Part shown: one piece after another, positions 1 through 59,347 of the stretch
Layout of the letters: every line of letters starts with the position of its first letter
How positions within the stretch are numbered: the first letter of the stretch is position 1
DNA from: an archaeon
GTDB taxonomy: Archaea; SpSt-1190; DYHY01
Length of the DNA stretch: 64,000 nt
Assembly (NCBI GenBank): GCA_043803745.1
Contig: JAZDJS010000026.1
Coordinates: 5,025 to 69,024, forward strand
Reading direction: 5' to 3'
Translations under genes and position numbers: made by a program
Notes under the pieces: model-generated
Database searches by the model: none
What the model was told of the DNA's origin: nothing
The model's input: the letters and a program-made list of their open reading frames with translations, nothing else

Positions 1-927
1 CTTTCCGACATTTGCCTGATTGACGAAAGGAAGAATTTCCTAGGGGTCATCCTGGAGGGCGCGCTCTTGCTGGCGTCACCGAAGGAAAAGGCGAAGAATC
101 TCTCCTTCAATCCGCCTTCAATCTCTCCGGAAAGCACTGTGCGCGATGCGCTGAAGGTTTTCGCTTCGTCCGGGATGCAGCTCCTCCCCGTTGTCCAGAA
201 GGGCAAGCTCTCGGGAGTCCTGAAACTCCCTTCAGTGATTCAGAAACTGCCGCTCGGCGAGCTCACACTTGAGGAGGTCACCAACAAGCACCCGTATTCA
301 ATTGGCGAGGCAACGCCCGTTGCGGATGTGAGGGAAATAATGGTCCGGAGCAGGCTTGGCAGGGTTTATGTGACTGACGCGGCGGGGCACCTGACCGGGA
401 TAATAACGCACAATTCGTTCCTGAAGAAGCCCGGTTTCTTCAAGAAAGACTGGCGCCGCGCCTCGGAAATAATGGAGCACGGAGTCCTCTCGATTTCCCC
501 ATCGGACACGGTTCAAAAGGCGGCGGCACTCGTTGCAAAGAACCGCCTGAGGGCTATTGCACTCGTAGAAAACGGGCACCTTGTCGGCTCAGTTGAAGCG
601 GGCTTGATTGTCTCTAAGGTTCTTGAGAAAACCGAACCCGTTGGCGAGGGGATAAGGGTCGAAATTTTGGGACTTGCCTCTTTGGAGTCCTTCGAGAAGA
701 CCGCGATAAACTCCGCGGTTTTCGGTCAGGTCAGGAAAATCTCCGAGGAGCTCGGGCCCTCGACAATCAAGCTCGTTTTCAAGAGGAGCCGGAGCGAGTG
801 GGAAGTCTCCCTGACAGCAACCCTGACCGGGGGGAAGAAAATTCTTGCCAAGGTGTCGGAATTTGACGCCCTTTTCGCAGCATCGGAAGTTTTAAGAACG
901 CTCCAGAAGAGGGTCAGAAATGGCTGA
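1..927 (+). CDS. CBS-domain pair protein (5' end outside window)
   Basis: The frame is open from base 1 and the upstream in-frame peptide LSDICLIDERKNFLGVI continues the ORF. There are repeated CBS-like blocks (GHLTGIITHNSF, GHLVGSV). The gene runs into the window edge. Confidence 0.65.
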   Translation, partial: LSDICLIDERKNFLGVILEGALLLASPKEKAKNLSFNPPSISPESTVRDALKVFASSGMQLLPVVQKGKLSGVLKLPSVIQKLPLGELTLEEVTNKHPYSIGEATPVADVREIMVRSRLGRVYVTDAAGHLTGIITHNSFLKKPGFFKKDWRRASEIMEHGVLSISPSDTVQKAAALVAKNRLRAIALVENGHLVGSVEAGLIVSKVLEKTEPVGEGIRVEILGLASLESFEKTAINSAVFGQVRKISEELGPSTIKLVFKRSRSEWEVSLTATLTGGKKILAKVSEFDALFAASEVLRTLQKRVRNG

Positions 928-1345
928 TGAGGGACGCTTTAGCGAGGTCGAGCACCTTCTAGAGAAGCTGAAATACGGCGAAATAATCCAATTCGTGAAA
1001 GAAGAGGGAATTGAGGCAAAGGGGAACAAGGAAAAACTCGTTGCTGTGATTCTGAAGAAAGTTCCCGAGGAAAAGATCCGCGCGTTCTTCAAACAGGCAA
1101 GGGGAATCAAGGTTGACATCTCCGAGCACAGGCTGGTTCCGCAGCACGAGGTGATCGGGGAGAAGGAGCTTGCCGCGCTTGTTGCAAAGCACCACTGCAA
1201 GATTGCCGATCTTCCGCGGACTTTCGACACCGATCCAATGTGCCTCAAGGTTGGGGCGAGGTCGGGGGATGTAATTAAAATAACCAGGAAAAGCCCAACT
1301 GCGGGCCAAGCATACTATTATAGATTAGTTGTCAAGAGTATATAA
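920..1345 (+). CDS. rpoH: DNA-directed RNA polymerase subunit H (Rpb5-like) with ~60-aa N-terminal extension
   Basis: The C-terminal 80 aa (HRLVPQHEVIGEKELAAL...GDVIKITRKSPTAGQAYYYRLVV) match the RpoH/Rpb5 C-domain signature (HELVPKH...GDVVKIIR.SETAG..YRLV). Confidence 0.75.
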   Translation: MADEGRFSEVEHLLEKLKYGEIIQFVKEEGIEAKGNKEKLVAVILKKVPEEKIRAFFKQARGIKVDISEHRLVPQHEVIGEKELAALVAKHHCKIADLPRTFDTDPMCLKVGARSGDVIKITRKSPTAGQAYYYRLVVKSI

Positions 1346-1973
1346 TATGCTGGCAGGGGCAATTCCAATGCTATCCGGAGGTTTTTTGTCAATTGAAAGG
1401 ATATTCGTCCTTATCGTCGTCATTTTTGGCTTGCTCTGGGCCTCGATCAAGGTGCGGAAATATCTCGCATACCTGAGGGAAACCGGAATGAAGGGCTTCG
1501 GGGCAACCCTGATCGTCCTTGGCGGGATTTTGTTCGTTTTCGCATCAGTCAGGATCGGGGGGCTCTACCTTTTCCAATACCTGACCGAGACGATAACGAG
1601 CGAACAGATGCTCAAGCTCTCGCTCTGGCTTGTCATTTTCGGGGCGGGATTCATCCTCCTAGACTGGATTGTGCGCAAGTTCCAGAAAAGGCAGCTCCTC
1701 GGGCTCGAGGATGAGCGGCGCGAATACATCACCCGCGTTAGGAAGGGGATAAAGATCGAGGATGCGGAAAAAATCGCCTTTGAGAACGTCAAGAAGGTCC
1801 TCAACCCACCCGGACTCAAGTTGATTGCAGCTGAGAAGGAGTTCAAGACCTGGCGCGTCTACATGAAGGACACGATTGGGAAGAAATACATGGTTGCCCT
1901 CGACATCGAAGGGGAGATAATGACGACGGAGACAATGGACGAGCTTCCCTCATATCTCGGCGGGATTAACTGA
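1329..1973 (+). CDS. hypothetical membrane protein (2-3 N-terminal TM helices)
   Basis: Hydrophobic N-terminal segments followed by a charged soluble tail. No recognisable family. Confidence 0.4.
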   Translation: MSRVYNMLAGAIPMLSGGFLSIERIFVLIVVIFGLLWASIKVRKYLAYLRETGMKGFGATLIVLGGILFVFASVRIGGLYLFQYLTETITSEQMLKLSLWLVIFGAGFILLDWIVRKFQKRQLLGLEDERREYITRVRKGIKIEDAEKIAFENVKKVLNPPGLKLIAAEKEFKTWRVYMKDTIGKKYMVALDIEGEIMTTETMDELPSYLGGIN

Positions 1974-1997
1974 GCGGGGGAAAAGAGCCATTCTTTA

Positions 1998-2690
1998 GTG
2001 GGAAACCTGGAAACTGTTTTAAAGGCAGTCCGAACCCGGAAGAAAATGAGCCAAGACGAGCCAGTCATTTTGGTCTGCCTGCCGCAAACAAGGGCGGATA
2101 AAATCAACTATATCAAAAGCATTCTCAGGGTTGCCGACGAGCCTTTCCAGAACGTTGACGATTCGCATCCGGAGCCGTTCCGGGACGCCGTCCTCCAGAA
2201 CCTTGGGAAGGCATTTCCGGGCGCAAGGACCTACCTTGACTGGGTCGATACTCAAAGCAGCGAGCCGCTTCAATTCGAGGAAATTCCCAGCGTCTCAGGA
2301 GCGATCCTTTACGATGTCCTCCTGAAGAAATCGCTTGCAGCTTTTGGCGCCCAGGCTGCCGAGAACGGGCCTTCCGATTCCCCGAGAAAAGCATGCGAAA
2401 TCCTGACTGCAAATTTGCGGGCTCTTCGCGGCTCCGGAATGGCGGGGCAGGAATTTCCAATTGCAATTGTCGACTACTTGGACACTCCTGCGGAGACGCT
2501 CTATCTTGCAACAGCTGCAGCCGGAGCAACCCGGTGGAAGGCTGCCGAACAGGCCTCGCACCAGTGGGCGGATGTCCTCGAGGGCGCAGGACTGAAAATG
2601 CAGAGTTGCCGGACATATCTCAGGGATGGAGTCTACAGGATTGTTGTCGAGGCGGTCGCGCCCGCCGAGTTCGCGGGGCCGCAGAACTGA
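1998..2690 (+). CDS. hypothetical protein
   Basis: Long ORF in an intergenic slot with no motif recognised. Several overlapping shadow ORFs in the region reduce confidence. Confidence 0.3.
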   Translation: MGNLETVLKAVRTRKKMSQDEPVILVCLPQTRADKINYIKSILRVADEPFQNVDDSHPEPFRDAVLQNLGKAFPGARTYLDWVDTQSSEPLQFEEIPSVSGAILYDVLLKKSLAAFGAQAAENGPSDSPRKACEILTANLRALRGSGMAGQEFPIAIVDYLDTPAETLYLATAAAGATRWKAAEQASHQWADVLEGAGLKMQSCRTYLRDGVYRIVVEAVAPAEFAGPQN

Positions 2691-2731
2691 GAAAGGAAAT
2701 GTAATAAACTTGGGTTTTTTCCGGCTAACGG

Positions 2732-4135
2732 ATGAAGAAAATCCTTTTCGCAGTTCCGCCCTCGGAAGCAAAGAGAAGCGCGCTAGAATATCCCCCGATT
2801 TACCCGCCCCTCGGAATACTCTATCTTGCCGCGGCAGTTAGGGCGCGGCTTGGCTGGGATGTTTTCGTCCTTGACGGGCAGAGGGAGAAGGATTTTTTCC
2901 GGAAGGTTTTGCGGACAGCCCCGGATTACATCGCCCTTTCCTTCCACACCTTCCACTCCGAGGATGCGAAAATCACGGCAGGGAAAATACGCGCGCTACT
3001 GCCGGAGACAGTATTGATTGCCGGGGGAAACCACCCGACATATTTCCCGGCCGAGACCGCGCGGATTTTCGACTATGTCGTCGTCGGGGAAGGGGAGGAA
3101 ACACTCCCCGAACTCCTCGAAGCACTTGAAAAAAAAGGAAGGCTCTCCGAAATAAGGGGGCTTGCCTTCCGGAAAAGCGGAAGATTCTTCTTTGCCGGCA
3201 GGCGGCCTTTCAAGAGGAAAATCGACGAGCTCCCCCTCCCCGCCCGGGACCTTGTCGACTGCAAAAGCTATCCCGGTTTCTACTACCAGAAGAGAAAGCC
3301 GGACACGTCCGTGATTTCCTCCCGCGGCTGCCCTTACAAATGCACGTTCTGCTCGAAAACCTGGGGGAATTTCCAGAGGGCGCGCTCGCCAGGGAATTTC
3401 GCCGACGAGCTGGAATTGCTTTCGCAATCGGGAGTGCGCGAGATTTACGACTGGGCTGACGAGTTCAACCTTGTTCCGAAAAAATCGAGCCAGGTCCTCT
3501 CGGAGATAAGGGCGCGCAGGCTAGACCTGACATTCAAGGCGCAGTTCAGGGCCAACGGGCTTGGACGCGAATATGCGGAGGAGCTTGCGAAAACGGGGTT
3601 CTGGCTCGCCAACGTCGGGATAGAAAGCGCGAACGGCAGGACGCTTGCGGGAATAAGGAAAGGCGTCACAATCCCCCAGGTGCGCTCAGCCCTTCGGAAC
3701 CTGAAACGGGCGGGACTGAAGACGCTCGGTTTCTTCATCGGGTTCAACATCTGGGAGGAGAACGGCTTGCTGAAATTCGAAGGGGTTCGGGAGACTCGCC
3801 TTACGCTCAAATTAATCGAAAAACTCCTCAAGGAAAGGCTCCTAGACTATTTCACATTCTCCCTTCCAACTCCGTATCCGGGTTCAGGTCTCTATTCGAC
3901 CGCGAAAAGGCACGGGCTTCTTGCCGGAAACTACTCGGACGCGACATCCCACGAGATGATTGTGCGCCTTCCAGGGATTTCCGGGGCTGAGATTGCTGCG
4001 GTCAAGCGGGAGGCGACTATTCTCCAGGCAGGAGCAGCGTTCTCCGCCGGTCGCCTCAATCCAGGCATCTGGAAATTTTATTTAAGCAAGCTCGGGGAAC
4101 AGCTCAAGCCGAAATTCGGAAGGAGAAAGAACTGA
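2732..4135 (+). CDS. B12-binding (class B) radical SAM protein
   Basis: The N-terminal Rossmann-like cobalamin-binding domain (ILFAVPP...YPPLGILYLAA...VLDG) is followed by a radical SAM CxxxCxxC motif (SRGCPYKCTFCSK). Confidence 0.8.
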   Translation: MKKILFAVPPSEAKRSALEYPPIYPPLGILYLAAAVRARLGWDVFVLDGQREKDFFRKVLRTAPDYIALSFHTFHSEDAKITAGKIRALLPETVLIAGGNHPTYFPAETARIFDYVVVGEGEETLPELLEALEKKGRLSEIRGLAFRKSGRFFFAGRRPFKRKIDELPLPARDLVDCKSYPGFYYQKRKPDTSVISSRGCPYKCTFCSKTWGNFQRARSPGNFADELELLSQSGVREIYDWADEFNLVPKKSSQVLSEIRARRLDLTFKAQFRANGLGREYAEELAKTGFWLANVGIESANGRTLAGIRKGVTIPQVRSALRNLKRAGLKTLGFFIGFNIWEENGLLKFEGVRETRLTLKLIEKLLKERLLDYFTFSLPTPYPGSGLYSTAKRHGLLAGNYSDATSHEMIVRLPGISGAEIAAVKREATILQAGAAFSAGRLNPGIWKFYLSKLGEQLKPKFGRRKN

Positions 4136-4141
4136 CTGGAA

Positions 4142-5179
4142 ATGGCATGGATTCTCGAAATCGCCCTTTTGGCATCCCTGCTCCTTCTTGCAGCGGCCCT
4201 TTTCCGGAAATCCCCCGCAACCTTTGCCGCCGTTTCCGCAATAATCCTTCTTTTCTTCGCTCCGCGCCTTCTCTGGACCGATTACCAAAGGACGTATGCA
4301 GGAAGCTTTCTTGGGCGAAAGGCTGTCGAGTTTTCCGAGAGCTTCCTAGGCTATTATCCCCTCGATTCCACGGACGAACAGGCAAGCTGGTTCTCTGACA
4401 ACCGCGCCCAAGCCTTCCGGGATGACGGGATACATCTGGTTGGCGTGGGGAAAAATTGCCTCGCGCCTTCGGTCGTTTCCAGGGAACTTCCGCTCAATAG
4501 AATGCCCCTCACATTCCGCGCCTGCTCCGGGAAATCGGGCGGAGACGGAGCAAGCTTCTACTTCAGCGTCTGGCCGAAGAAGGTTTCGGAAATAATCAAG
4601 GTCCCCGAGAATTCCTGCATCTCGGTTTACATCAACAAGACAATGGGGTCCGGGTCGAAAATCTACTTTGCAAGCCTTCCCGAGGGGAACTGCGACGAGG
4701 AGGACATTGTCCTGAAGGCCTTCGTTGCCGGAGCTTTCGGGCGAGAGGTGTCCCTCGGCAGCAGCTTGGATTTCTCCGAAATCCGCATTTCCCAAACCTC
4801 CGATTCCTGCGGGATTTCCCTGCAAGGAGGAATCCAACTTTCCGGGTGCGGAGGCTGCAACGGGACGAACTGGGTCGAGTTTTCCCCCGCGCACTTCGAG
4901 AGGCCGGGGAACCTTTCATTCATTGCGTGCGGAGGGAACAGGTCCTCCAGCACACAAGTCCTCGTCGAAGCTTCCGGAGAAAAATACGCCTTTCCTCTAG
5001 ACTTTCTTTCCTGCAGCGACTATTTCATCCCGGGAGAAATTGCAAGGGCGAACTTCACGCTCTCCGCTTCAGGAGCCGGCTGCGAAAGCGCCTCGGCGAC
5101 AATACTGAGGCTCAGGTTCGTCCAACGGGGACCTGAAGGTTTGGAACGGCCGCTCTCGGCAAATACGGAGGCCGGCTGA
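4142..5179 (+). CDS. hypothetical Cys-containing membrane-anchored/extracytoplasmic protein
   Basis: Two N-terminal TM helices precede a ~280-aa domain with multiple Cys (CGISLQGG...SGCGGCNGT). The gene sits 6 nt after the B12-rSAM stop and 2 nt before the next gene, so it is likely co-transcribed. Confidence 0.45.
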   Translation: MAWILEIALLASLLLLAAALFRKSPATFAAVSAIILLFFAPRLLWTDYQRTYAGSFLGRKAVEFSESFLGYYPLDSTDEQASWFSDNRAQAFRDDGIHLVGVGKNCLAPSVVSRELPLNRMPLTFRACSGKSGGDGASFYFSVWPKKVSEIIKVPENSCISVYINKTMGSGSKIYFASLPEGNCDEEDIVLKAFVAGAFGREVSLGSSLDFSEIRISQTSDSCGISLQGGIQLSGCGGCNGTNWVEFSPAHFERPGNLSFIACGGNRSSSTQVLVEASGEKYAFPLDFLSCSDYFIPGEIARANFTLSASGAGCESASATILRLRFVQRGPEGLERPLSANTEAG

Positions 5180-5181
5180 TT

Positions 5182-7374
5182 TTGGCGGGACGGCTAATCA
5201 TACTCGTCCCAATCCTTCTTTCCCTCCTGATTTTCGCCCTTGGCTACTTGTCAATTCCCGCGCTCGTTGCCGCTGCCGCAGCCTCGATTCTCCTTGTACG
5301 TTTCTCAAAAAAGGAGGCGCCGGTCCTCTATCCGACGCTGATTGCCGTTTTTTCAATCATTGTCCTGGCCTCCTCGGGAATTTTCGAGAATACAATCCCG
5401 ACTTTCGCAGATCTTCCGTACCACTACTACCATTCCTGGGTCGTCGACAAGATTCTCCTCGGCGAGTTCTCGGGGCTTGAGGGATGGAACGGATATTTCC
5501 AGCTCGGGCACATGGAGTTCTACGATCTTCCGCCCTTCTTTTTCCTTCTGGTCGCTTTTCTGAAGCGTGCGGCGTTCGGGCTGCTTGAGCTCCACCAGGC
5601 GTTCCGGATTCTTGCGGCAATCGCGTTTGCTGCCGCGCCCCTTGCGCTGTATTTCTTCGCAAAAAAGCTGGGCTTTTCCGGAAGGACTGCCTTCCTTTCC
5701 GGAACGTTCTTCCTTCTTTCACGGCACCATGCGATTGAGAACGGACTTTTCGCGTCCTACCTTTCGGTTGCGCTCTGCCTCGCCTCCGGAATCCTGCTTC
5801 TCTCGGGAAAGGGAAAGTTGGCCGGGGCGTTTTCAGCCCTCTCTTTCATGTCGCACCCAACGGTGTTCATATTCACCTTCCTCCTCGTCATTGTTTCGTC
5901 CGGATTCGGGCGGCTTATGAGGGAAAAGGCCGGCCTTGGAAAATTCCTGCTTGTCTTTTCCGCAGTTTCCCTTCCCTATCTGGTCCAGATCTTTTCCGGA
6001 AGAATCTATTCGATCAGCGCATGGTCGGCCCTGCCGGGGATTTTCCCCGCAATGTACGGAGCGGAGTCCTTCTTCATCGAAATCCTGCGCCATCCCCATT
6101 TCCTTGTCGCGGGAAGCTTCCTCGTGCTTTCCATCTCCTCCCTAAACGGAGCGTCCAAGCGGACCGCAAGGGCGGCGACGTTCCTGTTCATAATAGGGGG
6201 GTTTTTCTCCCTTGTGAAACTCGCCGGAGTCAGTAACCCGGTTCTCAACGTTTTCGTCCCGGAAAGAATCGCGATTCCGCTCATCCTTTCGCTGTCAATT
6301 GCAACCGCCGCGTTTGCCGAAAGGTTCGTCGCCGGAACCTTCTCAGGAAACCCCCTGAAACGGATTGCCGCAACCCTTCCATTCATCTATGCGGCGTGCT
6401 TTTTCCTGTTCTATCTCGCGAGCTCCTGGAACTGCCCCTCCTGCACCGACCTCTTCGACAGGGTGAACTCCCCGCCGTTTTTCCCCGAGGAAGGGGTTTT
6501 CAAAAGCTGGTACGGGATTTCCCCGCACGCGGGGATTTTCTCATCGAATTCCGATCCAGCATTCTCCTCAGCAGTCGATTACCTCAGGAAGAACGAAGAC
6601 AACAGCTCGAGGGTCCTTTTCGAGGATTCAAGCCGCCACACCTACGGGGGCTGGGTCATCCCGCTCCTTCCGATAAAGACCGGGCTTTCCTTCGTAGGGG
6701 GACCGATGGCTTCGATGAATCTCGACGGAGACAGGCCGATGAACTTCTATGACGGCAAACTCCTCGGGCGAGAAATCTCGAACTATTCGACCGAGGAACT
6801 CCGGCAAATCCTTTACGACCTGAACGCCGGGACCGTATGCGTTTGGAACAAAGAGTCCAAAAGGGTCCTGTCGGCATCGCCGCTTTTCGAGAAGGCGTTT
6901 GAAACGGGGAGAAACCAGAATGGACTTTCAATTTCAATCTACGCGATGAAGGGCGCCCGCAGGAATTTTGTCCTTCGCGGCGGCAGGGCGGTCAATTTCT
7001 CGAACAGCGCAATCACGATTGATGCGTCCGGAAAAGAGGACGTGATAGTTTCCTTGCGGTTCCACCCCGGATGGGTTGCACGGGATTCCGAGGGACGCTG
7101 GCTCGCGACAGGCAAGTCCTCCGACGGCCTCCTCCAAGTTGTCAGCCCGCCAAAAGGCGAGGTCAGTCTGGAATTCACGCCTTCAGTGCCTTCAAGGGTT
7201 GCTCTTGCTGTCTCGATTCTCGGGACCGTATCAGTCGTCTTCATTGAGGCGTTCTGGCGCCCTGCCGCCGGAACCTCCGGAACCTCCGGAACCTCCGGAA
7301 CCTCCGAAAAGGGAAGGAAACGAGCCCGGCAAAGCCGCCTGCGGTCCAGGAAATTGCGCGCGCGAAGGAAATGA
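5182..7374 (+). CDS. large polytopic membrane protein with C-terminal soluble domain (glycosyltransferase/polymerase-like)
   Basis: About 12 predicted TM helices are followed by a ~250-aa hydrophilic domain, then a GTSGTSGTSGTS repeat and a basic tail. The topology resembles GT-C-type enzymes but no catalytic motif was verified. Confidence 0.5.
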   Translation: MAGRLIILVPILLSLLIFALGYLSIPALVAAAAASILLVRFSKKEAPVLYPTLIAVFSIIVLASSGIFENTIPTFADLPYHYYHSWVVDKILLGEFSGLEGWNGYFQLGHMEFYDLPPFFFLLVAFLKRAAFGLLELHQAFRILAAIAFAAAPLALYFFAKKLGFSGRTAFLSGTFFLLSRHHAIENGLFASYLSVALCLASGILLLSGKGKLAGAFSALSFMSHPTVFIFTFLLVIVSSGFGRLMREKAGLGKFLLVFSAVSLPYLVQIFSGRIYSISAWSALPGIFPAMYGAESFFIEILRHPHFLVAGSFLVLSISSLNGASKRTARAATFLFIIGGFFSLVKLAGVSNPVLNVFVPERIAIPLILSLSIATAAFAERFVAGTFSGNPLKRIAATLPFIYAACFFLFYLASSWNCPSCTDLFDRVNSPPFFPEEGVFKSWYGISPHAGIFSSNSDPAFSSAVDYLRKNEDNSSRVLFEDSSRHTYGGWVIPLLPIKTGLSFVGGPMASMNLDGDRPMNFYDGKLLGREISNYSTEELRQILYDLNAGTVCVWNKESKRVLSASPLFEKAFETGRNQNGLSISIYAMKGARRNFVLRGGRAVNFSNSAITIDASGKEDVIVSLRFHPGWVARDSEGRWLATGKSSDGLLQVVSPPKGEVSLEFTPSVPSRVALAVSILGTVSVVFIEAFWRPAAGTSGTSGTSGTSEKGRKRARQSRLRSRKLRARRK

Positions 7375-8263
7375 GGAAGAAGACTGGCTTGGAAATTCCG
7401 CGAGCTTCAAGAGATCTTGCCGCAAGCAACGCAACAAGCAGCGAGAGGACCGCTGCCGAGAGAAACAAGCTGAACGGAAGTAGGACGGCTGCCGCCGAAA
7501 GGAGAACTGGCTGTGCAAGATATCCGGCGCCCGGATGGGAAATGCTCGTTTTCGAAAAACCCTCGCCCGAAAGGAAAATCTCGCCGTGGCTTTTTCCGTA
7601 TTTGAAGGCTTCCGAGAGAAGATTGCCAAGCGAATAGTCCTTCATGTGTCTGACCCGCAGGCCGGGCTCATACCACATCCGCTTGCCGGCGTTCCTGAGT
7701 TTCATTGAAATTTCCGTGTCGGTGCCGGTTCCCGAAAGCTCGTCGAACCCCCCGATCCCGGAAAAGTCCTCCGTCCGTATCAGGAGGTTGTTCGTGTCAA
7801 GCCAGAAGGTTTCCCCCCGCTTTCCGAGCCGGATTTCCCAGTCCGCCCGCGCAAAGGAATTGACCGCTCCGGGATATTTCTCAAAGGGGTCGCTCCCTCC
7901 GACAGCCGAGAATCCCTCGGGGAGCGCTCCGGCAATCCTCGCAAGCCAGTCCCTTTCCGGCAGGCAGTCCGGGTCAATGAACGCAAGGAACCGGAACTTC
8001 TTTCCGGCAAGAAGCCCGAGCCCGTAGTTGCGCAGGCCTTGGACGTTCGTCTTCCCAGTCCGGATAGCCTTCACCCTGCGGAAGCTTCCGCAGGTTCTCA
8101 GGGCGGGTTCGTCAGCGTCTCTGTCAAGAAGCGCGAAAACCGAATAGCGGAGTTTCCCCCCAGTTCCCTGGCGCGAGAGCGCGCCAAGACATTTCCGGAG
8201 GCGGGCATCGCCCCGGTAAACCGGAACGAGGACGGCAACAGATTCCTTCCGACTTTGTGTCAT
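7241..8263 (-). CDS. family 2 glycosyltransferase (dolichyl-phosphate sugar transferase-like) with C-terminal TM helices
   Basis: GT2 N-terminal signature (VAVLVPVYRGDARLRKCLGAL), a DxD region (FIDPDCLP) and C-terminal hydrophobic helices. The start is placed at the internal MTQSRKES; the longer track ORF (to 8515) is probably an upstream extension. Confidence 0.6.
   Translation of the reverse strand: MTQSRKESVAVLVPVYRGDARLRKCLGALSRQGTGGKLRYSVFALLDRDADEPALRTCGSFRRVKAIRTGKTNVQGLRNYGLGLLAGKKFRFLAFIDPDCLPERDWLARIAGALPEGFSAVGGSDPFEKYPGAVNSFARADWEIRLGKRGETFWLDTNNLLIRTEDFSGIGGFDELSGTGTDTEISMKLRNAGKRMWYEPGLRVRHMKDYSLGNLLSEAFKYGKSHGEIFLSGEGFSKTSISHPGAGYLAQPVLLSAAAVLLPFSLFLSAAVLSLLVALLAARSLEARGISKPVFFLISFARAISWTAGGFAGLVSFPFRRFRRFRRFRRFRRQGARTPQ
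7270..7305. repeat. perfect 9-nt tandem repeat (GGAACCTCC)x4
   Basis: Directly visible in the sequence. It encodes GTSGTSGTSGTS on the + strand and RRFRRFRRFRRF on the - strand, and lies in the overlap of two convergent ORFs. Confidence 0.9.
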
Positions 8264-8319
8264 CAAGTCTCCCTTCCGGCGCATCCCGCGGAAACTGCAC
8301 AGTTCCTTATTAAGAATTA

Positions 8320-8691
8320 TCAAAGGTAGCTTTTTCCCGGGTCGGTTTCCCGCTTCGTGATTTCCCTCTGGTAGTCTGGGGGATAAATCTCGACTATCTC
8401 GAACTTTCCCCTCGTATGGGGCGTCCCGTCCTTCTGGTAGATTGTCTGCTCCAAAACCCGCGCATGCCCCCAGTAAAGCCATTTCCCTCCGATGTTCTCG
8501 ACGAGGAAAACCCACAAAGGGGGAACCTTGTACACGCGCGCGAGCGGCTTGTCCCTGAAATCGAAAACGCGCCCCCGGAATTCCTCAGCGGCAAGGGGAC
8601 TTTTCAGATGCGTTTCAAGCGAAAGTTCCGGCGGGAAACCCTGCTCCTTCGTCAGCTGAAGTGTGTCGTTAATCTCAATCAAGCTGCCCAT
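8320..8691 (-). CDS. small conserved hypothetical protein
   Basis: A compact ~124-aa ORF starting at MGSLIEIN with a globular composition. The longer track ORF extends over the divergent topoisomerase start. No family recognised. Confidence 0.35.
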   Translation of the reverse strand: MGSLIEINDTLQLTKEQGFPPELSLETHLKSPLAAEEFRGRVFDFRDKPLARVYKVPPLWVFLVENIGGKWLYWGHARVLEQTIYQKDGTPHTRGKFEIVEIYPPDYQREITKRETDPGKSYL

Positions 8692-8731
8692 TTCACCCCA
8701 AATTAGCGGGGAACGTTTTTTAAACACTTGG

Positions 8732-10387
8732 ATGGGGAGGTGTTTCGTGTCAGAGCCTGAGATCGACCGGGCCCCCTCCGGGGAACTTCCCGAGGAACTC
8801 TCCGAGGCGCGCCCAGGGGAAACCTCCAAAAAGCCCCGAAGATGGAGAACCCTTTTCCACGGGGGCGTTGCCTTCCCTCCCAAGTACCGGTTTCGCGGCT
8901 TCTTGACCAAGCTCCGAGGCAAGCAGTTCACGCTCTCTCCAATCCAGGAGGAAATGCTCTGGGCAATCGCGAGGAAAACCGGGACGCCCTACCTTTCCGA
9001 CCCGGTGTTCGTCGAGAATTTCATTGGAGATTTCCGCAGGCAGCTTCCGAAGGAGTTCATTGACCTGACTTTCCAGGAAATCGACCTTTCCGAAATCAGG
9101 CGTGCCCAGGAAGAGGAGCGCGCCAAGCGAGAGGCAATGACACTGGATGAAAAGAAGCTCCTTGCCAAGAGAAGGAAGGCTGACCGCGAAAAGCTGAGGG
9201 CGGCGTTCGGATTCGCAGAGGTCGACGGGAAGACTGTCGAGCGCGCCGGCTATGTCGCCGAACCGGCCGGGCTTTTCATGGGCCGGGGCGCGCATCCGCA
9301 CAGGGGGAAATGGAAGGAGCAAGCCTCCGAAGAGGAAATGATACTGAATCTCGGGGAAAGCGCGCCAGTTCCCCCAGGAAAGTGGAAGGCGATTGTCCAC
9401 GACCACACATCAACCTGGCTCGCGTCCTGGACAGACCGGCTTTCCGGGAAGACGAAATATCTGTGGCTTTCCGATCTTTCCGAAATCCGCCAGGAGAACG
9501 ACATAAGGAAATATGACAAGGCTGAACTCCTTGCCGGCAAGATTTCCAAGGTCAGAAAGGAAATCACAAAAGGGCTTGCATCAAGAAACATCCAGACACA
9601 GAAACTTGCGCTTGTCGCATACCTGATTGACCGGCTTGCGATGCGTGTCGGGGATGAGAAGGACAAGGACGAGGCCGACACGGTCGGGGCAAGCACCCTC
9701 CGCGCCGAGCACGTCAAGACGGACGACAAGAAAATGCTGTTCGATTTCCTCGGCAAGGATTCTGTCAGGTGGCAGAAGGAAATAACCGCCGAGACTCCCG
9801 AGGATTCGGCCGCCCTCGGATATTTCAGGGAAACCCTTCCGAAGAAGAAGGTGGGCGAACTCCTTTTCGAGGGCGTGACTTCCTCAAAGGTTAATGAATT
9901 CCTTTCCTCATGCGCGTCCGGGCTTTCGGCGAAGGTTTTCAGGACGTTCCATGCAACCAGAACCGTCGAGTTATTTCTCCTAAAGGCTCCGGCGGAAAAG
10001 CAGGCCCCGGAATACGAAAAAGTTTACTGGGGAAAGCTCGCGAACCTCGAGGCTGCAAAGGTCTGCAACCACAAAAGGACCCCTCCGGCCGGCTGGGAGG
10101 AATCCCTCAGAAAAAAAGAGGAGAAGCTCAAGGAACTGGAGGCCTCCGGCAAAGAAGCGGAGAAGATAGGAAAATCCAAGAGGGAAATCGAGCTTGCAAT
10201 TTCCGTCCGCGACTATAACCTGAACACGTCCCTTCGGAACTACATCGACCCCAGGGTTTATGCTAAATGGGCAAGGAGAGTCGGGGTTGATGCGAGGAAG
10301 ATTTACCCGACATCCCTGCAGAAGAAGTTCTCCTGGCTGCCGGAAATCAAACCTGCCGAGAGGAAAACCGGGAAGAAATCAAATTAG
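8732..10387 (+). CDS. topIB: DNA topoisomerase IB (eukaryotic-type topoisomerase I)
   Basis: Core-domain conservation (KWKAIVHDHTSTWLASW, GDEKDKDEADTVG, TLRAEHV, FRTFHATR) and the active-site tyrosine motif LNTSLRNYIDPRVY (compare human SKLNYLDPR). The start is likely the internal MGRCFVSEP. Confidence 0.85.
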   Translation: MGRCFVSEPEIDRAPSGELPEELSEARPGETSKKPRRWRTLFHGGVAFPPKYRFRGFLTKLRGKQFTLSPIQEEMLWAIARKTGTPYLSDPVFVENFIGDFRRQLPKEFIDLTFQEIDLSEIRRAQEEERAKREAMTLDEKKLLAKRRKADREKLRAAFGFAEVDGKTVERAGYVAEPAGLFMGRGAHPHRGKWKEQASEEEMILNLGESAPVPPGKWKAIVHDHTSTWLASWTDRLSGKTKYLWLSDLSEIRQENDIRKYDKAELLAGKISKVRKEITKGLASRNIQTQKLALVAYLIDRLAMRVGDEKDKDEADTVGASTLRAEHVKTDDKKMLFDFLGKDSVRWQKEITAETPEDSAALGYFRETLPKKKVGELLFEGVTSSKVNEFLSSCASGLSAKVFRTFHATRTVELFLLKAPAEKQAPEYEKVYWGKLANLEAAKVCNHKRTPPAGWEESLRKKEEKLKELEASGKEAEKIGKSKREIELAISVRDYNLNTSLRNYIDPRVYAKWARRVGVDARKIYPTSLQKKFSWLPEIKPAERKTGKKSN

Positions 10388-11095
10388 CGAGAATCCGCTG
10401 CCCGCGTAGACTTTCAGGAGCCTTCCAGACTGTCCCCGCGAGAAAACCCAAGCTCCCCGGCCCCTTTTCGCCGAAAGGACCGAGAAGTTCCTCCCGTCGA
10501 CAGTTTCCAGGGCGGCGCAGTCTTCAATTCCGACGACAAATTCGGCTTTCCTGACAAGCTTGCCCGCCGCCCGCTCCCTCCAGGCCCGCTCCCGGAAATG
10601 GTGCGGGCTTATGCCGAAAGGAAGGAAGCCGAGGCCTTTCACGCGCATCGCCTTCTGGGACGGTTTTGTCCAGAACCTCCTGGAATCGCTCGTTCCGAAG
10701 CGGGCCCAGCAGAGCGCCCCTGCCGAAATCCCGGAAAGAACCGTTCCGCGCCCTCCTGCAGTCCGCAGGAGTTCCCCGACCCCGAATCTTTTCCAGAGCC
10801 GCAGCATCCGCAAGGTGTTCCCCCCGCCGACGTAAATTATGTCGGAGGAAAGAATCTTCCTCTTGATTTTCGCGCGGTCCCGGTCATCCGAACAAAGGCG
10901 CAGGTGCGCAACCATGCAGCCGAGCTTTGAGAAGCGGGCTTCCACCGCGTTGCAGTAGCCGGGAGAATCCCCGCTGGCAGTTGGTATGAACAAGAGCCGA
11001 GGCGCCCTCTTTCCAGAAAGACGAACGATTTCCCTTTCAATCCGCCCGGTTTCTCCGAGGGAAATCTCCCCGCCGCCAATCGCCACAATCTTCAT
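10379..11095 (-). CDS. S51 peptidase (peptidase E / cyanophycinase-like)
   Basis: MKIVAIGGGE...LLFIPTASGD...IIYVGGGNTLRMLRLW...GTVLSGISAGALCW matches the peptidase E family layout, with the nucleophile Ser in GISAG. Confidence 0.7.
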   Translation of the reverse strand: MKIVAIGGGEISLGETGRIEREIVRLSGKRAPRLLFIPTASGDSPGYCNAVEARFSKLGCMVAHLRLCSDDRDRAKIKRKILSSDIIYVGGGNTLRMLRLWKRFGVGELLRTAGGRGTVLSGISAGALCWARFGTSDSRRFWTKPSQKAMRVKGLGFLPFGISPHHFRERAWRERAAGKLVRKAEFVVGIEDCAALETVDGRNFSVLSAKRGRGAWVFSRGQSGRLLKVYAGSGFSLI

Positions 11096-11311: not shown

Positions 11312-12103
11312 TTACTCGCTTTCAATCCTCGGCGCAAGGACATACTTGAGCTGGAGCTTGTCAGTCACCGAATACTCGACCTGTATCGGGAAATCCGACT
11401 TGAACTGGATTTTCGCGGTTTCGGAAAGCTTCCCGCCCTTGACAATCTTCTTCAGATAATCCACCGCATAGCGCGCCTTTGCCGGAGCAGTCACCTGCAG
11501 CTCGACAAGCGCAGTGTCCACCCCCTTCTCAAGCTCCGTTATTGCCTTGCCGGTTTCCCCGGAAGCTTCGATAGAGAACTTGCCCGAGTCCGCGAGGAAG
11601 ATGACCGAATCTGAAAAGACCTCCGCGTCGGAAATCGCCTGGGAAAGCGCGGTGCTTTTCACGACAACGGTTGCCTCGAAGTTTATTGTCGGGGGCTTCC
11701 GTCCCTCGGAAGGGTTGTCGAGGAGGGGGATGTTGAACCTCCTTGTGCTCAGCGCGCTCTTGAAAACAAAGGAAAGGTTCGAGGCTTCGTCCCCGCCGAA
11801 GCGGATTGTGACCGCATCGCCCGAGTCCGCCTGCTTGACCACCTGCATCAGGCGTTCCATGTCAACGCCTATTGTCCTCTCTTCAGAGAGCTTGTAATCC
11901 TCGAAAGCAGTCACGAGCAGGCGAAAGGTCACCATTGAGACGTTCGCAGCATCCATTGCTGAAAGGAAAAGCCCGTCCTTCGTCAGCTTGAATGAGACAT
12001 CCTCCTTCACAATCTCATATACGGCAGAAATAGCATCCTTGAGTATGCCCGCCCCGGCAAGCTTTGCTTCGAAAGAGGCTTTAATAGTTCCCTCACTAGC
12101 CAT
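11312..12103 (-). CDS. pcn: DNA polymerase sliding clamp PCNA
   Basis: Length (~263 aa), two-domain pattern, an acidic C-terminus and conserved blocks (FEAKLAGAGILKDAISAVYEIV, SLSAMD..NVSMV) typical of archaeal PCNA. Start taken at MASEG. Confidence 0.85.
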   Translation of the reverse strand: MASEGTIKASFEAKLAGAGILKDAISAVYEIVKEDVSFKLTKDGLFLSAMDAANVSMVTFRLLVTAFEDYKLSEERTIGVDMERLMQVVKQADSGDAVTIRFGGDEASNLSFVFKSALSTRRFNIPLLDNPSEGRKPPTINFEATVVVKSTALSQAISDAEVFSDSVIFLADSGKFSIEASGETGKAITELEKGVDTALVELQVTAPAKARYAVDYLKKIVKGGKLSETAKIQFKSDFPIQVEYSVTDKLQLKYVLAPRIESE

Positions 12104-12509
12104 GTTTCGCAAGGATTCCCTCCGCCCTTTTTATTAGTTCACCGGAAAGCCCGCGTTCCGCCGCAGACTTCAAGATTATCTCCCCGTTTATGTCGAACTT
12201 CGACGGTCCTTGGGGGACCACAAGGCCCGACACAAGAACCTGTTCGCCCTCCCGGTAATTCTTCTCGATTTCGTCCACAACGTCGAGATTGTCGAAGAAA
12301 ACCTCCGCCCTGCCGGTTCCGTCGGAAAGCGTGAGGGCGCCGTTTAGCCCCTTTTTCTCTATCTTCCCGGAAAGCCTCACACGCCGGTCGGCTCCGGAAA
12401 TCTCGGAAATCTTCCTGGGAATTGCAGGATTCCTTCGTTTCAGAAGACCTTCTCCTCCCTCGGTCTGGCCCCCTTCAACGGGGGGCGCACTTCCAAAAGC
12501 ATCGGCCAC
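12096..12509 (-). CDS. OB-fold nucleic-acid-binding protein (RPA-like)
   Basis: An OB-fold-like core (RVRLSGKIEKKGLNGALTLSDGTGRAEVFF...GEQVLVSGLV) preceded by a Gly/Glu-rich N-terminus. Adjacent to PCNA. Confidence 0.4.
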   Translation of the reverse strand: MADAFGSAPPVEGGQTEGGEGLLKRRNPAIPRKISEISGADRRVRLSGKIEKKGLNGALTLSDGTGRAEVFFDNLDVVDEIEKNYREGEQVLVSGLVVPQGPSKFDINGEIILKSAAERGLSGELIKRAEGILAKHG

Positions 12510-12526
12510 GGGGCGAGAACCCCGGT

Positions 12527-12540
12527 AAAGTTTAAAACAA
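12527..12540 (+). promoter_or_regulatory. TATA-like box (AAGTTTAAAACAA) ~25 nt upstream of pepA start
   Basis: An A/T-rich box in an otherwise GC-rich intergenic region at the archaeal promoter distance. Confidence 0.35.
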
Positions 12541-12560
12541 TTGCCCTCCCACCAACCCCC

Positions 12561-13979
12561 ATGACGCAGGAAAATATCGAACTCGTTTTTTCCCAGGGAA
12601 CTTCGGCAAAGAAGAAGGGCAAGGCTTCCGCAAGGCTCGTTTTTCTTTCCGAGGACAAGGCTTTCGGGAAGCTTCTGAAGGTGGCGCCTTCCCCCGAAGG
12701 CGTCATAATCGGGCTTGGCGACGAGAAAACAGCGGATGCGGAAACGATAAGGCGCGCCGCCGGAAGCGCGGTCCAGTACATACTGAAAACCCTTGGAGCG
12801 GGCTCGCTTTCCCTTTCCCCGAAATCCTCGAAGAAGCTTCTTTCGAACAGGAAGTTCTTGGCAGCATTCACGGAGGGCGCAATTCTCTCAGCATATTCGT
12901 TTGACAAGTACAAGACGCCCTCGGAGGAGCAACAGCAGGCGGCAAAGCTGACCGGGTTGCATTTGCCCGTTCCAGCCTCAAGGGAAATCCTGGAGGCAAA
13001 GTCGGTCGCCGAATGCGCCAATTGGGCGAGGGAAATACAGAACGAGCCGGCGAACGTTGCCACACCCACGATGCTTTCCCTCCTCGCGGCAAAGGAGGCG
13101 AAAATATTCGGGATGAGCTGCAAGATATTCGGCAGGGCTGAACTCGAGAAGATGGGGATGAACGCAATACTTGCGGTTGGTCGCGGAAGCGCCGAGGAGC
13201 CCAAGCTGATCGTCCTCGAATACCTGCCGAAGAGCGGGGTTGCGAAGAAAAAAATAGCCCTCGTCGGCAAAGGAGTCTGCTTCGATTCCGGCGGGATTTC
13301 GATCAAGCCCTCCCGGGCAATGGATGAGATGAAGTTCGACAAGAGCGGCGCAGTTGCCGCAATCGCAACGATGCGGCTTGCCTCGATACTCAAGCTCCCG
13401 CTTCACCTTGTCGCGCTCGTTCCCGCCGTAGAGAATCTGCCTTCCGGAACGGCAGGAAAGCCCGGGGACATCGTGCGCGCCCACAACGGGAAGACGATTG
13501 AGATACTTGACACCGATGCCGAGGGACGGCTCATACTTGCCGACGCCCTTTCCTTCGCATGCAAGGAGCACAAACCGGACGTCCTGATAGACCTCGCAAC
13601 CCTGACCGGCGCCTGCGTTGTCGCGCTCGGGGACGTTGCGGCAGGGCTTTTCTCAAACGACCCGTCCCTCGCAAAGGAGCTTTTCGAGGCGGGAATGGAA
13701 TCAGGGGAGCGGCTCTGGGAGCTGCCGATGATGTGGAAGGATTATGACGAGAAGGTGAAAAGCGACGTTGCCGACGTCAAGAACCTCGGGGAATCCGGGC
13801 AGGCGGGCGCAACGGCTGGCGCAAGCTTCCTCAAGGAGTTCGTTTCGTCCGGAACGAAGTGGGCGCACCTCGACATTGCCGGGACTGCCTGGACAACGAA
13901 ACCCAGGCACCAGTTCTCCTTCAAGGGCGGAACCGGGTTCGGCGTCAGGCTCTTGGCGAGATACCTTTCCAAGCAGTGA
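12561..13979 (+). CDS. pepA: leucyl aminopeptidase (M17 family)
   Basis: M17 catalytic-domain signatures: VGKGVCFDSGGISIKPS, NTDAEGRLILADAL, NEPANVATP. Confidence 0.85.
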   Translation: MTQENIELVFSQGTSAKKKGKASARLVFLSEDKAFGKLLKVAPSPEGVIIGLGDEKTADAETIRRAAGSAVQYILKTLGAGSLSLSPKSSKKLLSNRKFLAAFTEGAILSAYSFDKYKTPSEEQQQAAKLTGLHLPVPASREILEAKSVAECANWAREIQNEPANVATPTMLSLLAAKEAKIFGMSCKIFGRAELEKMGMNAILAVGRGSAEEPKLIVLEYLPKSGVAKKKIALVGKGVCFDSGGISIKPSRAMDEMKFDKSGAVAAIATMRLASILKLPLHLVALVPAVENLPSGTAGKPGDIVRAHNGKTIEILDTDAEGRLILADALSFACKEHKPDVLIDLATLTGACVVALGDVAAGLFSNDPSLAKELFEAGMESGERLWELPMMWKDYDEKVKSDVADVKNLGESGQAGATAGASFLKEFVSSGTKWAHLDIAGTAWTTKPRHQFSFKGGTGFGVRLLARYLSKQ

Positions 13980-13981
13980 GT

Positions 13982-14389
13982 TTAGACAGCTAGCAAAACT
14001 GCTGCGGCAATCCCAAGAGCAATGCCTGCAATTTTCGTCAATGTTAGCTTCTCAGAAAGAAGGATTACCGCCAAGAAAACAGCTACAAGCGCGCTCAGTG
14101 CATTAAGGGTTGCAACAACACTTGTGCTTCCCCGTTTCAGAGCAACGACGAAAAGAAGAAGAGCCAGAAAATACACCGCTCCCGAAAGCACGCCAGACGC
14201 AACACCCAAACTACTAAGAATTTTCTCCTTTACGAAAAAAATCCAGTAAAGGAGTGTCAAAAAAGCCGCGGTTGCAAGGGAGATTAATGTCAAGCTAGTG
14301 GAGTCAATGTTCTTGGCGCTTTTGAGGATAATTGCATTCGCTCCGAAGAAAACTGTGCTTGCCAGCGCAATCAGAATGTACGATTCCAT
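13982..14389 (-). CDS. EamA/DMT-superfamily small membrane transporter (single 4-TM domain)
   Basis: A 135-aa protein made of four hydrophobic helices with an EamA-like GANAIILKSA...ATLNALSALVAVFLAV pattern. Confidence 0.5.
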   Translation of the reverse strand: MESYILIALASTVFFGANAIILKSAKNIDSTSLTLISLATAAFLTLLYWIFFVKEKILSSLGVASGVLSGAVYFLALLLFVVALKRGSTSVVATLNALSALVAVFLAVILLSEKLTLTKIAGIALGIAAAVLLAV

Positions 14390-31566: not shown

Positions 31567-31773
31567 TTGGCCAAAAAAGGGCCAATGCGGGCCAGCTTCG
31601 ACTACGAAGACGTAAAAATGCGCTCGGTTGACGAAATCCTCTTCAACTACAACCGGGACAAGCCGACTTCCCGCAGAATTTCGAAATCGGAGCTGCTCAG
31701 ACGGCTCCTGGACCTTGTGTCGAACGGAAAAATACCTCTGGAGAAGGTGGTCATAATTAATGAGAAGAGATAA
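31567..31773 (+). CDS. small hypothetical protein (possible regulator) preceding the giant surface-protein genes
   Basis: A 62-68-aa basic ORF (likely start at MRASF, 31585) overlapping the start of the giant gene by 14 nt. No family recognised. Confidence 0.3.
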   Translation: MAKKGPMRASFDYEDVKMRSVDEILFNYNRDKPTSRRISKSELLRRLLDLVSNGKIPLEKVVIINEKR

Positions 31774-53458: not shown

Positions 53459-53522
53459 TCTCGGGGAATCCCGCCCGGCGCGAATAAAAAGCTTGCCAGC
53501 CGGCGATTCCCGCGGTCAAGCG

Positions 53523-56909: not shown

Positions 56910-56919
56910 GCTTCCGGGG

Positions 56920-57030: not shown

Positions 57031-57039
57031 GCTGCGGGA

Positions 57040-59337: not shown

Positions 59338-59347
59338 CTGCGCCGAA

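Follow-up and report, generated by a model that had tools for sequence, protein, structure and literature searches.

The window analysed here is a 64,000-nucleotide (nt) stretch of archaeal DNA (contig JAZDJS010000026.1, positions 5,025 to 69,024). At its positions 2732-8263 it carries a gene for a B12-binding radical S-adenosylmethionine (SAM) enzyme, which is followed by genes for a cysteine-rich (Cys-rich) membrane-anchored protein and for a large polytopic membrane protein, and is faced by a convergent gene for a glycosyltransferase of family GT2. A second pair of B12-binding radical SAM enzyme and large membrane protein had been reported at 52145-55472 by a sequence-only reading of this DNA, and the pair was indeed found there by open reading frames (ORFs) and Pfam domains. 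Does the recurring pair represent a functional module or a coincidence, and what could be the role of the membrane protein? The sequence-only reading had favored a module, and this was upheld by profile homology and by conserved adjacency. The radical SAM/GT-C module is real.

Locus 1 (2732-8263) comprises four genes, all of which were present in the ORF list at the expected coordinates:

2732-4135, plus strand: rSAM_A, class B radical SAM enzyme (B12-binding domain), BchE/HpnJ-like; 467 amino acids (aa); Pfam
3329-3352, plus strand: CxxxCxxC [4Fe-4S] cluster motif of rSAM_A, CPYKCTFC; regular-expression search on the translation
4142-5179, plus strand: Cys-rich membrane-anchored protein; 345 aa; N-terminal transmembrane (TM) hairpin, predicted extracytoplasmic all-beta region
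4418-4726, plus strand: conserved core of the Cys-rich protein, residues 93-195, motif C..AC..SGGDG...P.NSC; invariant columns in alignments A6/A7
5182-7374, plus strand: MP_A, GT-C-fold glycosyltransferase-like polytopic protein; 730 aa; no Pfam or NCBIfam match
5410-5412, plus strand: codon of MP_A D77, putative catalytic base; sole invariant column in the 30-sequence alignment A3
7241-8263, minus strand: membrane-anchored GT2; 340 aa from the ATG at 8263; Pfam PF00535 and PF13641
7268-7306: perfect 9-nt tandem repeat CCGGAACCT x4.3 inside the MP_A/GT2 overlap; TRF

The gaps had also been given correctly. The stop codon of rSAM_A (TGA) and the start of the Cys-rich ORF are separated by 6 nt, and MP_A starts with a TTG at 5182, 2 nt past the stop codon of the Cys-rich gene, with a GGAGG 10 nt upstream. 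The short gaps and the GGAGG in front of MP_A are thus signs of an operon. The GC content is 56% at both loci, the same value as for the whole window.

The two large membrane proteins and their predicted fold

The sequence-only reading had named a lack of homology between the two large membrane proteins as the result that would speak against a module, and had proposed their comparison. The following features of locus 2 are needed for this comparison:

52145-53458, minus strand: rSAM_B, B12-binding radical SAM enzyme; B12-binding and Radical_SAM domains (Pfam); 64 nt downstream of MP_B
53523-55472, minus strand: MP_B, distant MP_A paralog; 649 aa; family profile; TM domain, soluble domain, C-terminal TM anchor
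55239-55241, minus strand: codon of MP_B D78, aligned with MP_A D77; hmmalign to the family profile

Pairwise comparison barely linked the two proteins. BLASTP yielded an E-value of 0.057 for about 115 residues at equivalent positions, and the E-value was 0.84 in an all-against-all BLAST. A hidden Markov model built from four sequences scored MP_B with 6.7 bits, which was equal to the best shuffled sequence, and word-indexed homolog searches resulted in a single match for MP_A and retrieved only MP_B itself for MP_B. When MP_A was compared exhaustively with 1.84 billion representatives by phmmer, in contrast, 94 relatives were found, and a family profile was built from MP_A and the full-length matches. 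With this deep profile the homology became visible: MP_B reached 78.6 bits (E 1e-23, residues 5-502), whereas the controls reached at most 4.8 bits. As controls 600 block-shuffled sequences were used (300 in 10-residue blocks, 300 in 20-residue blocks) together with the reversed sequence, which preserved the TM layout. The same profile scored three paralogs of a second genome (720, 712, and 655 aa, locus L001, see below) with 269-349 bits. The residues of MP_B that are kept in the profile alignment include D78 (equivalent to D77), P80, R135 (R142 in MP_A), H173 (H182), G179, Y184, and G476. The architectures are also alike: in both proteins the TM domain ends at about residue 415, a soluble domain of 210-250 aa follows, and a TM anchor closes the chain. 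Judged by profile and architecture, MP_A and MP_B are distant paralogs of one family. The score of 78.6 bits was obtained with the option --max, because the default bias filter of hmmsearch removes MP_B; routine annotation pipelines would miss relationships of this kind between membrane proteins.

The hydropathy profile of MP_A revealed about 10-12 TM segments; about 250 aa form a soluble domain, and the C-terminus is a TM anchor. An AlphaFold2 model based on a 30-sequence alignment had a pLDDT of 82.3 and a pTM of 0.84. The top 25 Foldseek matches of this model in the PDB were all GT-C enzymes (probability 1.00, TM-score 0.32-0.52), including STT3/OST, AglB, AftD, AftA, ALG9/ALG12, DPY19, and Pmt4. 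Members of the GT-C superfamily are built on a polytopic domain that has the GT-C fold and about 8-13 TM helices, and MP_A agrees with this in model and hydropathy. They also have a conserved acidic residue in the first extracytoplasmic loop, and D77 is such a residue. In the model it is localized in this loop, after the TM helix 49-65 and at the start of the helix 78-96, a position that is the site of the catalytic acidic residue in GT-C enzymes. Equivalents of D77 are present not only in MP_B, but also in four paralogs of L001 (L_720, L_712, L_655, and L_613; hmmalign). The topology, with a positive-inside C-terminal tail and with sequons and cysteines in the soluble domains, is consistent with a predicted action of MP_A outside the cytoplasm, for which a polyprenyl-phosphate-linked sugar would be the donor.

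The relatives of MP_A point to the same superfamily. Among 30 relatives, seven weakly matched PTPS_related (PF10131) and one matched YfhO (PF09586; both E<=0.1), others matched DUF6541, PMT_2, or GT87, and the profile search also retrieved proteins annotated as YfhO or GT39. PTPS_related, PMT_2, and GT87 belong to the GT-C clan CL0111 of Pfam (PMC7801869). The Pfam gathering scores of YfhO and PTPS_related were reached by neither MP_A nor MP_B, and the tie to these families is, as far as can be judged from domain matches, at the level of the clan. A search of the PDB sequences with the family profile did not retrieve any protein. On the basis of the structural matches of the model, D77, the GT-C clan matches of the relatives, and the lack of an own Pfam or NCBIfam model, MP_A and MP_B represent a so far undescribed family of the GT-C superfamily, as predicted from the model. 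The C-terminal domain of the family has the motifs GIFSS, SR.L.EDS, and F.GGP. One relative from the profile search, P0099 (1280 aa), is fused to four phosphoglucomutase/phosphomannomutase domains, which links the family to sugar-phosphate metabolism.

The conserved neighborhood

The second result named in advance as speaking against a module was a lack of the pairing in other genomes. The neighborhoods of seven archaeal-type lineages were judged, i.e., the window (twice) and the fetched loci L001/L013, L004, L005/L006, L007, L008, and L009. L001, L002, L003, L012, and L013 represent one lineage, in which L012 and L013 are metagenomic relatives of L001; a metagenome search with alignment A1 returned only relatives of this lineage. 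Two contigs of about 4 kb with MP relatives were too short and were left out of the judgement. In every sufficiently long archaeal-type neighborhood radical SAM genes were found within one to three genes of members of the MP family, and in six of the seven lineages a B12-type radical SAM gene was among them. The GC contents of the seven lineages range from 30 to 56%, the membrane proteins are about 20-30% identical, and gene order and orientation differ, but the adjacency persists. A bacterial-looking contig with a distant MP relative contained no radical SAM gene. The pairing is thus conserved in seven divergent lineages, counting the window.

The most elaborate example was L001 (metagenome-assembled genome QH2F170213_bin_305). 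It contains an operon of nine genes that overlap (by 4 nt) or nearly abut, and a radical SAM gene is present at either end: B12-binding radical SAM enzyme, proteins of 345, 720, 613, 125, 341, 712, and 655 aa, B12-binding radical SAM enzyme. A convergent GT2 gene follows, and the operon is preceded by the same genes for CBS, Rpb5, and a small membrane protein as in the window. Three of the proteins (720, 712, and 655 aa) clearly belong to the MP family, and the 345- and 341-aa proteins are Cys-rich homologs. Two further proteins have no counterpart in the window, namely a very divergent GT-C paralog of 613 aa (12003-13844, 28.5 bits with the family profile) and a membrane protein of 125 aa that contains five cysteines (13831-14208). 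The radical SAM gene and the Cys-rich gene of locus 1 match the first genes of this operon and MP_A is closest to the 712-aa paralog, and thus locus 1 looks, in gene content and sequence, like a minimal form of the larger operon.

The other lineages showed variations of the theme. In L004 a 211-aa Cys-rich homolog (E 4e-12) directly precedes the MP gene, the B12-binding radical SAM gene is convergent with the MP gene, and a GT2 gene and a CarS-like gene are also present; the best model for the radical SAM enzyme is HpnJ (234 bits). In L005/L006 small radical SAM genes are localized on either side of the MP gene, and a gene for a Tes-like radical SAM enzyme with a zinc ribbon is two genes away. 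On the 4.6-kb contig L007 a B12-binding radical SAM gene is directly upstream of the MP gene. In L008 two B12-binding radical SAM enzymes defined by Pfam, three other radical SAM enzymes, one of which is B12-type-like by BLAST, and a GT2 are interspersed among three MP paralogs. Last, in L009 a B12-binding radical SAM gene, a GT2 gene, and two small radical SAM genes are found ahead of the MP gene.

The Cys-rich protein of locus 1 (345 aa) has 10 cysteines, five N-x-S/T sequons, and an N-terminal hydrophobic hairpin with TM segments 1-23 and 25-46. The invariant residues of its core are C106, C128, GGDG 133-136, and C159. Homologs are encoded directly ahead of MP genes in L001 (twice), L004, L012, and L013. 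In L005 an ORF (2206-5001, plus strand) encodes a GT-C-like polytopic protein of 931 aa that carries two tandem copies of the Cys-rich core at its C-terminus (39.8 and 58.6 bits with the profile; BLASTP E 2e-8 and 1e-4). This fusion of the Rosetta-stone type links the products of the Cys-rich and the GT-C genes, and it argues for the core being an extracytoplasmic accessory domain of GT-C enzymes. Foldseek matches of the Cys-rich protein were tandem jelly-roll, carbohydrate-binding module (CBM), or discoidin-type domains, with low TM-scores and from a low-confidence model, and carbohydrate binding by this protein is thus a hint only.

The last gene of locus 1 is part of an ORF that spans 7241-8515 (minus strand). 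The start at the ATG at 8263 (MTQSRKES...), which had been proposed by the sequence-only reading, is likely, as the Pfam Glycos_transf_2 match starts only at residue 93-95. The hydropathy profile revealed a C-terminal TM region. L004 (32% identity, E 4e-34), L008, and L009 have orthologs in their MP clusters, and the GT2s of the four loci are members of one family, in which the C-terminal TM region is conserved. MP_A and GT2 share an overlap of 134 nt at their 3' ends (7241-7374). The tandem repeat inside the overlap is read as (GTS)n in MP_A and as (FRR)n in GT2 (translations GTSGTSGTSGTS and FRRFRRFRRFRR), and a change of the repeat number would alter the C-terminal tails of both proteins together.

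Locus 2 and the radical SAM enzymes of the window

Upstream of MP_B a dense cluster of radical SAM genes follows (55512-62653), no member of which attains the cutoff of a curated family:

55512-57131, minus strand: Tes/TrsS-like radical SAM enzyme with N-terminal zinc ribbon; Pfam Zn_ribbon_HMPTM and Radical_SAM; immediately upstream of MP_B
57040-58416, plus strand: rSAM_C, B12-binding radical SAM enzyme; Pfam
58495-59337: 280-aa protein with N-terminal signal/anchor, no known family
59303-60781, plus strand: rSAM_D, HpnJ/BchE-like B12-binding radical SAM enzyme; HpnJ model
60778-61593, plus strand: UbiA-family prenyltransferase; Pfam PF01040, E 5e-13
61490-62653, plus strand: small radical SAM enzyme, PTO1314-family-like; Pfam; best NCBIfam match TIGR03961, below cutoff

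The window of 64 kb contains seven radical SAM genes, i.e., a frequency of about 7% per gene. The domains PF02310 and PF04055 were found in all four enzymes rSAM_A to rSAM_D (in rSAM_A with E 2.4e-20 for the B12-binding domain and E 1.3e-17 for Radical_SAM), and CPYKCTFC or equivalent motifs were located. All four thus have the N-terminal B12-binding domain and the core with CxxxCxxC that characterize class B radical SAM enzymes. The best NCBIfam models for rSAM_A were BchE (TIGR02026; 126.7 bits, cutoff 481) and HpnJ (TIGR03471; 96.7 bits, cutoff 578), the best model for rSAM_D was HpnJ (232 bits, cutoff 578), and the weak matches of the radical SAM enzymes include the peptide methylators ApyD and rSAM_ocin_1. 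The possibility that any radical SAM enzyme of the window is an ortholog of Tes, HpnJ, BchE, or HpnR was rejected, because all scores were far below the cutoffs. The best relative of rSAM_A in the PDB is AprD4 (6fd2, E 1.6e-12). AprD4 has a B12-like domain but is not known to use cobalamin, and cobalamin binding by rSAM_A can thus not be assumed.

rSAM_A and rSAM_B are 27% identical (E 2e-11) and belong to different subfamilies of B12-binding radical SAM enzymes. rSAM_A groups with rSAM_D and the enzymes of L001 (BchE/HpnJ-like), and it is 56% identical to the first radical SAM enzyme of the L001 operon and 40% to that of L007. rSAM_B groups with rSAM_C (35% identity). The closest counterpart of rSAM_D among the fetched loci is the enzyme of L004 (38% identity, E 7e-112). 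The product of 55512-57131 reached 150 bits with the TrsS model (cutoff 490) and 132 bits with the Tes model (NF045702, cutoff 450); it shares with Tes only the zinc ribbon and the radical SAM core, and similar genes adjoin MP homologs in L005 and L008. The small radical SAM enzymes that flank MP homologs in L005, L008, and L009 have their best match with TIGR03961 (PTO1314), below the cutoff, and thus resemble that encoded at 61490-62653.

The arrangement had been described as a "second, smaller copy", and this description was not supported, because the radical SAM enzymes are of different subfamilies, the gene order is reversed, and the membrane proteins are barely linked by BLAST. In addition, neither a GT2 gene nor a Cys-rich gene is present at locus 2. 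A duplication of locus 1 was rejected as its origin. By sequence comparison the 280-aa protein (58495-59337) is not homologous to the Cys-rich protein. Locus 2 represents the same kind of system in a second, divergent form.

Proposed function, rival explanations, and known systems

The analysis shows the parts, the GT-C fold, the homology of MP_A and MP_B, and the conserved neighborhood, whereas we infer which substrates are used, in which order the steps occur, and what the chemistry is. By analogy to known systems, locus 1 might be a compact form of a conserved archaeal envelope-glycosylation module, in which a lipid-linked sugar is modified by radical SAM chemistry and used for glycosylation outside the cytoplasm; this is the likeliest of the readings, although with slightly less than even confidence. 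First, the GT2, acting at the cytoplasmic face, would use a nucleotide sugar as donor and attach its sugar to an isoprenoid lipid of the membrane, and polyprenyl or dolichyl phosphate or a membrane lipid would be candidates for the acceptor. Second, the cytoplasmic B12-binding radical SAM enzyme would alter the lipid-linked sugar or the lipid; C-methylation, deoxygenation, or a ring rearrangement of the HpnJ/Cds type are candidate reactions. Third, after flipping, MP_A would transfer the altered sugar onto an extracellular acceptor by means of the invariant Asp. Fourth, the Cys-rich protein, a putative extracytoplasmic beta-sandwich accessory, would bind the glycan acceptor or would itself be the acceptor. 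The sequence-only reading had suggested a radical SAM enzyme that acts on a membrane-bound substrate "handled" by the partner. The first part is kept as a proposal, now with a lipid-linked substrate, while the second was revised, because the partner has a GT-C fold and an Asp in the catalytic loop.

Several points weigh against glycosylation with a radical-modified sugar. The radical SAM enzymes adjacent to MP genes represent at least three B12 subfamilies as well as non-B12 types, and thus there is no single conserved chemistry; in L005/L006 radical SAM genes are present, but none is of the B12-type. The number of independent neighborhoods is small (seven lineages). MP_A and MP_B have no Pfam match (E<=0.01) and no NCBIfam match. 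The AlphaFold2 model of the Cys-rich protein is all-beta and of low confidence (pLDDT 57; core about 63-81). The GT2 is generic, and its profile did not single out polyprenyl-phosphate glycosyltransferases in the PDB (chondroitin synthase 105 bits, DPMS 57, ArnC 40, GtrB 38). Nothing favors a sugar over the isoprenoid chain as substrate of the radical SAM enzyme, and the Tes-like, UbiA, and CarS-like neighbors suit a chemistry of lipid tails equally well. Last, a flippase of the GtrA, MATE, or Wzx type was not recognized by Pfam among the genes at 67-11095.

Two ORFs upstream of rSAM_A have no family match. The first encodes a membrane protein of 214 aa that starts with a hydrophobic stretch (1329-1973, plus strand), and a 202-aa counterpart equivalent in size and position is found in L001. 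The second, directly upstream of rSAM_A, encodes 230 aa (1998-2690, plus strand). The 214-aa protein could be a missing membrane component, e.g., a flippase.

A more far-reaching version of the glycosylation reading is doubtful, though still worth stating. It says that B12-type and other radical SAM enzymes remodel sugars bound to an isoprenoid lipid carrier, which are then brought to the cell surface by the new GT-C family together with the Cys-rich CBM-like domain, in an as yet unrecognized glycosylation route of uncultivated archaea. Should this be true, the diversity of radical SAM subfamilies and GT-C paralogs in each cluster would encode a combinatorial surface-glycan code, with sugars that are, for example, C-methylated, deoxygenated, or contracted to a carbocyclic pseudo-sugar.

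Among the rival explanations the one that survives best, although it is unlikely, is that the radical SAM enzymes methylate, cyclise, or cross-link the isoprenoid chains of membrane or carrier lipids, in the manner of Grs, Gms, Tes, and lipid methylases, beside an independent GT-C/GT2 glycosylation of envelope components, so that the genes share an envelope-biogenesis island and not a substrate. B12-binding radical SAM enzymes are known modifiers of archaeal lipid tails (PMC13459092, PMC11214058, and bioRxiv 10.1101/2025.10.20.683597). Tes/TrsS-like radical SAM enzymes, a UbiA prenyltransferase, and a CarS-like gene occur in locus 2 and related loci, and the subfamily of the radical SAM enzyme next to MP changes from locus to locus. 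However, none of the enzymes attains the curated cutoff of Tes or another lipid enzyme model, and the adjacency is very tight (gaps of 2-6 nt in the window, 4-nt overlaps in L001, radical SAM gene directly in front of MP in L007) and survives extensive rearrangement over the whole GC range of 30-56%.

The explanation implied by the sequence-only reading, i.e., that the GT-C-like protein is no transferase but a scaffold or lipid-presenting partner that holds a membrane substrate for a peripheral radical SAM enzyme, is improbable. It would account for the conserved pairing, and radical SAM enzymes, which have no TM segments of their own, would presumably profit from a membrane partner. Yet the one residue that is invariant in the family, an Asp, lies in the first extracytoplasmic loop, where GT-C enzymes have their catalytic residue, and the membrane separates it from the radical SAM enzyme. 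The large conserved extracytoplasmic domain (GIFSS, SR..EDS, GGP) and the CBM-like partner domains also point to chemistry outside the cell. In addition, up to four GT-C paralogs per two radical SAM enzymes are found in clusters, and thus the ratio is not 1:1.

Highly improbable is a maturation of proteins or peptides, in which the Cys-rich protein would be the substrate of the radical SAM enzyme, in the style of ribosomally synthesized and post-translationally modified peptides (RiPPs) or Cys-rich peptides, and would then be exported and glycosylated. The Cys-rich gene does sit between the radical SAM and the MP genes, and, as mentioned above, peptide-methylating B12-binding enzymes (ApyD, rSAM_ocin_1) are among the weak NCBIfam matches. 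But pairs of radical SAM and MP genes without a Cys-rich gene are present in L007, L008, L009, and locus 2 of the window, leader-peptide-like features and a RiPP recognition element were not found, and the Cys-rich domain is predicted to be a folded beta domain, which also occurs as an extracytoplasmic fusion to a GT-C protein. A coincidence or inherited synteny without functional coupling is hardly credible: the high number of radical SAM genes in the window raises the chance of adjacency and several of the fetched loci (L001, L002, L003, L012, L013) are from one lineage, but the seven distinct lineages retain the adjacency despite the low identity of the membrane proteins and changes of order and orientation, and a radical SAM gene within three genes at nearly every locus has, at a frequency of about 7%, a p of about 0.01 or less by our own estimate.

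The proposed glycosylation module was compared with known systems. With members of the GT-C superfamily (STT3/AglB, AftA/AftD, ALG9/ALG12, DPY19, PMT), MP_A has in common the polytopic N-terminus, the predicted fold, the Asp in the loop, and the large extracytoplasmic C-terminal domain, and the nearest Pfam families within clan CL0111 are PTPS_related, YfhO, and DUF6541. In contrast to known GT-C families, MP_A and MP_B have a distinctive C-terminal domain with the motifs mentioned above and a terminal TM anchor, and the family is rare (94 among 1.84 billion representatives) and embedded in radical SAM clusters.

A three-component glycosylation system consists of a polyprenyl-phosphoribose synthase, a MATE flippase, and a GT-C enzyme of family GT136, and the GT136 protein ORF12 bears a C-terminal CBM-like domain, ORF12-C (PMC11127046). 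In the GtrA/GtrB/GtrC, CsbB/YfhO, and GT136 systems, a membrane-anchored cytoplasmic transferase is likewise found beside a GT-C enzyme; here it is the GT2, a putative polyprenyl-phosphate glycosyltransferase, and at locus 2 a UbiA-type enzyme. A CBM-like accessory accompanies the GT-C enzyme on both sides of the comparison, and the L005 fusion parallels the CBMs of AftD and GT136 ORF12. The three-component systems have a flippase and lack a radical SAM enzyme, whereas in the module described here the radical SAM enzyme is integral and a flippase was not recognized.

For HpnI (GT2) and HpnJ (B12-binding radical SAM enzyme), and for the archaeal calditol synthase Cds, a rearrangement of a lipid-attached sugar by the radical SAM enzyme has been proposed (PMC13459092). 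The HpnI/HpnK/HpnJ pathway is similar in that it, too, combines the gene of a GT2 with that of a B12-binding radical SAM enzyme of the BchE/HpnJ-like kind. It differs in that the radical SAM enzymes of the module all score far below the HpnJ cutoff of 578 bits and that neither an HpnK-like deacetylase nor hopanoid genes are present. In contrast to both HpnI/HpnK/HpnJ and Cds, the GT-C enzyme and the CBM-like protein of the module would imply a further step outside the cell. The radical SAM enzymes of archaeal lipids (Tes, GrsA/B, Gms, lipid methylases) resemble the module in the archaeal context, the presence of Tes/TrsS-like and B12-binding enzymes, and the UbiA and CarS-like neighbors. However, the members of the module are below the curated cutoffs, and no paper was found that reports a pairing of those enzymes with GT-C proteins.

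Full-text literature searches retrieved no paper that links radical SAM enzymes with YfhO or GT-C proteins. Both GT-C enzymes and B12-dependent radical SAM enzymes have been intensively studied, and yet no report of a conserved pair of them was found. What is new here is a predicted glycosylation system of the GT-C type in which radical SAM enzymes are integral partners, together with the GT-C family and the accessory domain themselves. The pairing, seen in this uncultivated archaeon and in six or more further lineages, points to a hitherto unstudied mode of cell-envelope construction or decoration. Provided that the coupling is functional, it would define a GT-C family that is new and has an obvious catalytic Asp, as well as a new extracytoplasmic Cys-rich domain associated with GT-C enzymes, and the substrate of the radical SAM enzyme could be guessed (a lipid-linked sugar or the carrier lipid) and tested in vitro. 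It would bear on envelope building in little-known, probably small-celled, uncultivated archaea, and locus 1 with its four genes would be a minimal, convenient unit for heterologous reconstitution.

Some further observations concern the remainder of the window. Neither a tRNA scan nor an Rfam scan of the window had a match. Two giant ORFs (31760-37672 and 37672-44988, plus strand) abut each other; they encode 1970 and 2438 aa and have no Pfam match at E<=1e-6, and the two ORFs that follow them (569 and 345 aa) have none at E<=1e-4. The archaeal nature of the window is underscored by genes for Rpb5/RpoH, FtsZ, Trm1, an ABCE1-like ATPase, and a eukaryote-type topoisomerase IB. The latter gene is localized beside locus 1 (8663-10387, plus strand) and encodes a full-length enzyme with Topoisom_I_N, the catalytic core, and the C-terminal domain.

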